Below, in pieces: positions 63,497-64,000 of a stretch of 64,000 nucleotides of DNA. Position numbers and translations under genes: made by a program. The DNA is from Escherichia phage NHEP36. The notes beneath the pieces are model-generated. The model worked only from the letters and a program-made list of their open reading frames with translations, did no database searches and was not told where the DNA came from. The stretch lies in sequence record PQ511151.1; one strand, given 5' to 3'. The first letter of the stretch is position 1. Every line of letters starts with the position of its first letter.

Positions 63497-64000
63497 ATGA
63501 AAGTTATGTTTATCCCATCTCGTGCAGTCCCATTTAATCCTGACCGTGTACAAGGTGGTCTTGAAGCAGTACATTTAAATGTGTTGAAATATCTTGTGTC
63601 CATCGGTGCTGATATTGATTATATCGGCTTTGATAATGACACGTTTGGTGACTGGAAAGTTACACACCATCCTGTTGGTCATCTGACTAAATTCAGTCTA
63701 GGTATGAGTTATACTATGGCTCGTAAGATTGTTGAACTAGCCGGCATCCATGAATACGATTTTGTTGTTACTATGGAACCGACTAAACTAACCGTTCAGG
63801 CAATTAAAGACGCAGGTCTCTCTAAAGTTCATAAGAATTTTATGGCAACACCATTTGAACCGGTATCTCGTGGCATTGTTCAAATTTGGGACCAGACTAT
63901 TCAAATTCATAAGAATGGTGGTAAGAGTTATGCTCCTACTAAAGCCTTCCGTGAATTTGAACGCAAATATTGTTATATGACTTCAGGTCTGACTGACAAA
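63497..64000 (+). CDS. glycosyltransferase-like protein (partial, runs off window end)
   Basis: N-terminus MKVMFIPSRAVPFNPDRVQGGLEAV resembles the start of GT-B (GT4-like) glycosyltransferases; no stop before window end. Confidence 0.45.
   Translation, partial: MKVMFIPSRAVPFNPDRVQGGLEAVHLNVLKYLVSIGADIDYIGFDNDTFGDWKVTHHPVGHLTKFSLGMSYTMARKIVELAGIHEYDFVVTMEPTKLTVQAIKDAGLSKVHKNFMATPFEPVSRGIVQIWDQTIQIHKNGGKSYAPTKAFREFERKYCYMTSGLTDK

Follow-up and report, generated by a model that had tools for sequence, protein, structure and literature searches.

Identity of the open reading frame at the window edge

Which enzyme is encoded by the reading frame that opens just downstream of gene 39 in Escherichia phage NHEP36, and is it the enzyme that places a sugar on the DNA of this phage? 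The locus was analyzed in a stretch of 64,000 nucleotides (nt) from sequence record PQ511151.1 (the whole stretch is hereafter called the window), whose end at base 64000 cuts the open reading frame (ORF) in question, and which had previously been given a first-pass annotation made from the letters alone. As that annotation stated, the ORF starts just 3' of gene 39 and is cut by the window edge: an ATG at 63497-63499 on the plus strand, separated from the gene 39 stop codon by 42 nt, opens a frame of 168 sense codons that runs without a stop to base 64000, and the N-terminus that had been quoted (MKVMFIPSRAVPFNPDRVQGGLEAVHLNVLKYL...DYIG) is the translation of this frame. With the composition of the window (37.2% G+C, stop-codon probability 0.072), the chance of 168 open codons is ~4e-6. 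The translation matches phrog_8302 (E = 3e-95, profile positions 1-168 of 366), shares 167 of its 168 residues with RB69 ORF003c/gp3 (the single substitution being T56 here and N in RB69) and has the same 168 residues as the N-terminus of a 366-amino-acid (aa) protein of phage 308Ecol101PP. Judged from these three matches, the edge ORF is a real gene, and its sequence identifies it as a Mosigvirus orthologue of RB69 gp3 (ORF003c, RB69p003, NP_861693.1; 366 aa), of which the window holds the 5' 46%. The remainder of the transferase gene lies past the edge at 64000, with a stop codon expected, from homology, near 64597.

Close relatives are also found among annotated and structurally solved proteins. 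The edge ORF is identical at 166 of 168 residues to bas47_0105 of phage Bas47, annotated as “putative hmC-arabinosyltransferase” (hmC, hydroxymethylcytosine), and shows ~99% identity to PDB entries 9IQZ and 9IR0, titled “phage HY126 glycosyltransferase” and “...with UDP” (uridine diphosphate); two substitutions (Y160H and G164A) separate it from the Bas47 and HY126 proteins. At the level of the family, identity to the Acinetobacter and metagenomic members is 35-43%. On the strength of its translation, the phrog_8302 match and the identity to RB69 gp3, Bas47 and 9IQZ, the feature at 63497..64000 (+) was listed as the first 168 of ~366 codons of a putative DNA arabinosyltransferase of the gp3/ORF003c type.

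Upstream synteny matches as well, with gene 39 as the immediate neighbor, and the rIIA side lies beyond the window; the transferase gene is followed by rIIA.1 and rIIA in the complete relatives, namely RB69, 308Ecol101PP, phi25-307 and Bas47. ORF003c of RB69, which Thomas et al. proposed in 2018 as the arabinosyltransferase (PMC6024577), is placed between gene 39 and rIIA.1/rIIA, and the statement in the first-pass annotation that RB69-type phages carry their proposed arabinosyltransferase near the rIIA end is accurate. By megablast, the locus and the final 25 kb of the window match Mosigvirus (RB69-like T-even phages), the best matches being 97-99% identical, and the window is oriented opposite to the RB69 GenBank record. 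The record of the family runs from Thomas et al. in 2018 through the BASEL annotation of 2021 and PDB 9IQZ/9IR0 (2025) to papers of 2025-2026 that reassign it to the second sugar; the family is already described, annotated and crystallographically solved, and the edge ORF adds no new biology.

A family profile was needed to recover relatives, as the 168-aa fragment returned none when used as a homologue-search query, and an exhaustive phmmer search of 1.84 billion representatives contained only ~9 true family clusters. The helix LEAVHLNVLKYLVSIGADID (ORF residues ~20-45) draws many multi-stretch phmmer matches to long repetitive proteins, which are probably spurious and reflect a compositional or repeat artefact.

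Predicted fold and conserved residues

To describe the fold we used an AlphaFold2 model of the 99%-identical full-length orthologue P0007, built with a 13-sequence family alignment (mean predicted local distance difference test score, pLDDT, 87.8; predicted template modeling score 0.82), while a single-sequence AlphaFold prediction of the 168-aa fragment (pLDDT 33.8) was not used for fold searching. The model superposes on 9IR0/9IQZ with a template modeling score (TM) of 0.95-0.96, and Foldseek linked it with E = 5e-12 and weaker to GT4-type enzymes of the GT-B glycosyltransferase (GT) fold, among them BshA, MshA, PimA, LmbT and WaaG; sucrose-phosphate synthase is also among its structural neighbors. 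As modeled, this is a soluble glycosyltransferase with the GT-B fold and a GT4-like architecture, in which a cleft separates two Rossmann-like domains, and the GT fold that had been proposed as the check on the full-length protein is therefore present in the orthologue. From the title of PDB 9IR0, a structure of a 98%-identical protein, the enzyme would bind a UDP-sugar.

In the model, residues 1-168 account for most of the N-terminal Rossmann-like domain, with strands at 2-6, 39-44, 56-59, 89-93, 112-115 and 143-145 and helices between them. The part encoded in the window opens with a predicted beta1/Gly-Gly loop/alpha1 unit that carries the invariant G20-G21, and with GT4 enzymes as the nearest structures this agrees with the first-pass view of the N-terminus as the first beta-alpha unit of a GT-B (GT4-type) enzyme. 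Across the 13-sequence alignment, the invariant residues of the N-terminal half are P7, F13, G20, G21, L22, G51, K65, D88, E94, K97, T118, P119, R125, H138, G141, G142, T148 and F151, several of which are located near strand ends and helix starts and would be at the inter-domain cleft of the GT-B fold. The N-terminal domain seen in the window would be the acceptor-binding (DNA/arabinose) half of the enzyme. At the sequence level, neither the fragment nor the full-length orthologue matched a Pfam family at E <= 1, six members of the family had no Pfam match at E <= 10, and searches of PDB sequences with phmmer and with a family-profile hmmsearch recovered only the orthologue 9IQZ, with no sequence bridge to GT4.

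Two transferases and their distribution

The window holds a second glycosyltransferase gene (42992-43891), which belongs to an arabinose/5-hydroxycytosine cluster at 37902-44441, between gene 43 and uvsX, whose gene order is that published for RB69 gp55 to gp45 (PMC13326640). This cluster and the edge ORF co-occur in one genome, ~19 kb apart, which identifies the window as derived from an arabinosylating phage. The edge ORF and the in-cluster transferase are not detectably related, since a comparison of the gp3-family profile with the latter by hhalign gave a probability of 0.2.

The two genes also differ in how widely they occur. By tblastn, the gp3 family was found in 211 phage records, with coverage of 80% or more of the protein in 209 of them. 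In Mosigvirus records the identity is 95% or higher and the match falls in one place per genome; in Acinetobacter Straboviridae the identity is ~42% and there are two places per genome; one Tegunavirus record also matches. The in-cluster transferase was found in 348 phage records, i.e., ~137 more, among which are phages of Klebsiella, Serratia, Proteus, Yersinia and Kosakonia and further Escherichia phages, all without a gp3 homologue. Because many records lack such a homologue, the gp3 type is an accessory addition to a wider core pathway, and phages that have the in-cluster transferase only are predicted to carry mono-arabinosylated DNA or to rely on another extension enzyme. The Dhakavirus-like Escherichia phages Bp7 and WG01 are among the records with the in-cluster transferase, and its position directly 3' of a ThyA-like gene recurs in RB69, DLP1, Acj61 and the metagenomic contig SRR34397668.

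The gp3 family itself is found at different loci. Phages DLP1 and Acj61 have two tandem paralogues inside the arabinosylation cluster, directly after the kinase. In a metagenomic T4-like contig (Logan SRR34397668), the cluster holds one copy, 36% identical and flanked by the kinase-position ORF and uvsX. At 1540-5201 of the same contig, small genes separate the two ORFs into which the DNA polymerase is split, an arrangement also seen in Acj61 (gp43A/B). In Shigella phage JK45 (MK962757), a complete transferase gene is followed at 2694-3104 by a 136-codon ORF that repeats its 3' part, which reflects a partial tandem duplication or else an artefact of assembly; this record is classed as Tequatrovirus despite its Mosigvirus-type locus.

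Proposed role as the second arabinosyltransferase

The modified base of these phages is now reported to be arabinosyl-5-hydroxycytosine and not arabinosyl-hmC (PMC13326640, PMC13390438). RB69 DNA carries the mono- and di-arabinosyl forms and DLP3 DNA the tri-arabinosyl form, and the DLP3 paralogues gp76 and gp77, which act on DNA that is already di-arabinosylated, together put a third arabinose on RB69 DNA from UDP-arabinofuranose (PMC13326640). From synteny with Thanatos, a phage whose DNA is mono-arabinosylated, the same study put forward gp46:47 as the first transferase; for RB69 gp3 it proposed the role of “beta-arabinosyltransferase 2” (PMC13326640). The DNA of Mosigvirus NP has a mono:di ratio of 1:4, and the phage has two putative transferases.

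To an observed identity, fold, synteny, family distribution and cluster co-occurrence we add an acceptor and a linkage that we infer: the edge-ORF enzyme very probably depends on UDP-arabinofuranose, the donor reported for the Acinetobacter paralogues, and adds the second arabinose. We take this role as the best explanation because 0, 1 and 2 gp3-family copies go with 1, 2 and 3 sugars. The first-pass call of a glycosyltransferase, made without any search, is upheld in that the ORF belongs to the RB69 gp3 family of GT-B enzymes (167/168 identity, model TM 0.95-0.96 to 9IR0/9IQZ). Its further suggestion of a second strong candidate for the DNA sugar transferase holds with a refinement: the ORF would encode a DNA sugar transferase but not the only one, as it is assigned the second arabinose and the in-cluster transferase at 42992-43891 is proposed to be the base-proximal enzyme.

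In the pathway that we consider most likely, the thymidylate-synthase-like enzyme would make 5-hydroxy-deoxycytidine monophosphate (5-hydroxy-dCMP), and the in-cluster transferase would place the first arabinose on the 5-hydroxyl. The edge-ORF enzyme would then take UDP-arabinofuranose, supplied through the phage isomerase, kinase/uridylyltransferase and phosphatase genes at 37902-40790, and link a second arabinose to the first, on DNA. The resulting di-arabinosyl-5-hydroxycytosine would shield Mosigvirus DNA from DNA-targeting host defences.

Several points weigh against a second-arabinose transferase of this kind. No Pfam GT family, including Glycos_transf_1 (PF00534) and Glyco_transf_4 (PF13439), is assigned by sequence, and in place of the E-x7-E motif of GT4 the orthologues have E276-x4-E281, within TGTVENSSIEAISKGVPV and outside the window, the two motifs having been equated by eye and from Thomas 2018 (PMC6024577) and not by a residue-level structural alignment. 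The C-terminal, donor-binding half is encoded beyond the window, and that it is intact in this phage is assumed from 150+ relatives. DLP3 gp76 and gp77 are each inactive alone (PMC13326640), so that single-enzyme activity is not established for the gp3 family, and for RB69 gp3 itself that study offers the role as a proposal only. In favor of the role, deletion of the Aat arabinosyltransferase in Mosigvirus Bas46 makes the phage sensitive to a plasmid-borne defence, according to a statement in a citing paper (PMC13216743); Aat is presumably the orthologue of the edge ORF.

Alternative explanations

Were the edge-ORF enzyme instead the base-proximal transferase, first or sole, it would put arabinose directly on the modified cytosine, as proposed in 2018 for RB69 ORF003c. 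We regard this as quite unlikely, because the in-cluster enzyme is the more widespread of the two (348 vs 211 records, ~137 of them with the in-cluster enzyme and no gp3 homologue), the number of paralogues climbs with the number of sugars, the DLP3 paralogues use di-arabinosylated DNA, and synteny with Thanatos assigns the first step to gp46:47 (PMC13326640). The inactivity of the two Acinetobacter paralogues alone and their activity together leave room for another scheme, which we consider rather improbable, in which gp3-type enzymes would function strictly in pairs: the protein from the one Mosigvirus gene would be a homo-oligomer, with one subunit presenting the arabinosylated DNA and the other catalyzing, and the N-terminal domain, an orphan by sequence, would be a new module that recognizes a sugar on DNA and not a flipped base.

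An acceptor other than DNA, for instance a glycolipid of the host envelope, a protein or a small molecule, would suit the structural comparison, in which the top non-self neighbors (PimA, BshA, MshA and WaaG) all use non-DNA acceptors, as well as one record that annotates the gene as a phosphatidylinositol mannosyltransferase and the ~19 kb that separate it from the arabinosylation cluster in Mosigvirus. Such an acceptor is nonetheless very unlikely, given that three other lineages have homologues within the arabinosylation cluster, that the gp3 family is confined to phages with this cluster, and that DNA is modified in vitro by the DLP3 paralogues gp76/gp77 (PMC13326640). The gene could also be truncated, disrupted or non-functional past the window edge in this phage, since only 46% of it is in view, its locus is an insertion hot spot, where a homing endonuclease separates it from gene 39 in several relatives, and JK45 has a partial duplicate of its 3' part. 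The visible part is, however, without defects and 99% identical to functional-looking orthologues, and with at least 80% of the protein covered in 209 of the 211 records we hold a disruption to be extremely unlikely.

With addition of the second arabinose as the preferred role, the gene would be one of the two transferases of arabinosylated 5-hydroxycytosine, a recently clarified DNA hypermodification; it was proposed in 2018, is annotated in GenBank records and has a solved crystal structure. Arabinosylation lets RB69-like phages evade restriction enzymes, DNA glycosylases and DNA-targeting CRISPR systems, and this evasion bears on the choice of therapeutic phages.

Genes of the arabinosylation cluster

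All genes of the cluster are on the plus strand, and the functions given here follow those published for the RB69 counterparts (PMC13326640). The cluster opens with a SIS-domain sugar-phosphate isomerase at 37902..38537 (Pfam SIS, 1e-10), the equivalent of RB69 gp55 (arabinose-5-phosphate isomerase), followed at 38719..40404 by a bifunctional nucleoside triphosphate (NTP)-transferase/kinase equivalent to RB69 gp52:53 (Pfam NTP_transferase, 8.5e-10, with weak kinase-family matches in the C-terminal half), which makes UDP-arabinofuranose, the presumed donor for the edge-ORF product. By position, a 133-aa ORF at 40389..40790 without a Pfam match would correspond to RB69 gp51 (HAD-like sugar phosphatase), as its gene order suggests, and a Peptidase_U32-like gene at 40832..42007 (PF01136, 7.5e-11) to RB69 gp50. 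The thymidylate-synthase-family enzyme at 42276..42992 (Pfam Thymidylat_synt, 2.4e-15) would, again by position, be RB69 gp48 (dCMP to 5-hydroxy-dCMP synthase). Directly after this ThyA-like gene comes the in-cluster glycosyltransferase (42992..43891, 299 aa), which has no Pfam match and corresponds by position to RB69 gp46:47, and a 182-aa ORF at 43893..44441, also without a Pfam match, is likened by gene order only to RB69 gp45 (nucleotide kinase by structure). Some records call the ThyA-like gene “dCMP hydroxymethylase” and the in-cluster transferase “RNA polymerase binding protein”; both annotations look wrong.

Gene 39 and the intergenic gap

The upstream neighbor that anchors the synteny of the transferase gene is gene 39 (61637..63454, +), which, from the ORF list and the annotations of matching phage records, encodes an unsplit 605-aa topoisomerase II large subunit. 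Between the two genes, a terminator-like scan matched 63453..63482 (+), where a hairpin of 7 bp, capped by a C(UUCG)G tetraloop, precedes the U-rich CAUUUUAAUUUU. The hairpin proper (63453-63470) overlaps the gene 39 stop codon, with the U-rich tract 3' of it, and is present in both the minimum free energy and the centroid folds, the z-score of the 71-nt fold being only -1.09. Hairpins of the C(UUCG)G type are extra stable and are known from T4 intercistronic regions, and the one found here is a candidate terminator-like or mRNA-stabilizing element; it is kept in phi25-307, where it lies 3' of an inserted homing endonuclease. An AAGG at 63486..63489 (+), 7 nt before the ATG, reads as a putative Shine-Dalgarno-like site. 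We claim no promoter in 63200-64000, where a scan gave 3 sites vs 2.7 in shuffles, and a MotA-box middle promoter, looked for by eye in the 42-nt gap, was rejected because its spacing is wrong and it leaves no room for the ribosome-binding site.

Several relatives (phi25-307, SQ17, NRG-P0074, p000v, a20, F27 and AV111) have a freestanding homing-endonuclease gene of ~0.8 kb at the 3' end of gene 39, an insert that the window does not have. It adjoins the hairpin and the transferase gene on their upstream side (63448-63455 of the window vs 3450-4242 of the phi25-307 locus), with a short TGGATG repeat at the insert junction and the final gene 39 codons changed. In T4, a defective mobA occupies the corresponding site, and the order 3' of gene 39 is mobA, 60.1, 60, rIIA.1 and rIIA, in agreement with the earlier remark that T4 has gene 60/rIIA at this position. 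Gene 39 is unsplit here, as in RB69, and its T4 counterpart is divided into gp39 and gp60 by mobA/60.1; T4 gene 60 also bears a 50-nt translational bypass.

Comparison with known glycosyltransferases

Among enzymes of known structure, the GT4 members of the GT-B fold (BshA, 3MBO/6N1X; MshA, 3C4Q; PimA, 2GEJ; WaaG; sucrose-phosphate synthase, 6KIH) show 10-15% identity to the edge-ORF family and act on lipids, thiol precursors or sugar phosphates, whereas the acceptor proposed here is a sugar on DNA. Compared with the T4 alpha-glucosyltransferase (a-gt; PDB 1Y6F/1XV5), which lies at a different locus (near genes 47/55), sequence similarity to the edge ORF is undetectable, and we found neither homology to T4 a-gt or its beta counterpart (b-gt) nor a shared locus. 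T4 a-gt transfers glucose to the hydroxymethyl group of hmC, whereas the edge-ORF enzyme would put arabinofuranose on the arabinose of 5-hydroxycytosine; it would work like the T4 DNA glucosyltransferases without being a homologue of them at the sequence level.

The closest known systems are RB69 gp3, Bas47 bas47_0105 and the HY126 enzyme, which occupy the same place 3' of gene 39 in the same type of genome with the same arabinosylation cluster; nothing of substance differs, except that here the gene is cut by the window edge. The Acinetobacter enzymes DLP3 gp76/gp77 and their equivalents (DLP1_074/075, Acj61p076/077) belong to the same family, with 41-43% identity over the full length, and G20-G21, R208, E276 and E281 are invariant between these paralogues and the Mosigvirus enzyme. 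The Acinetobacter phages have two tandem paralogues within the cluster, both of which are needed for the third arabinose. The single Mosigvirus copy is displaced from the cluster to the region of gene 39 and rIIA, and no more than two arabinoses are present on Mosigvirus DNA.
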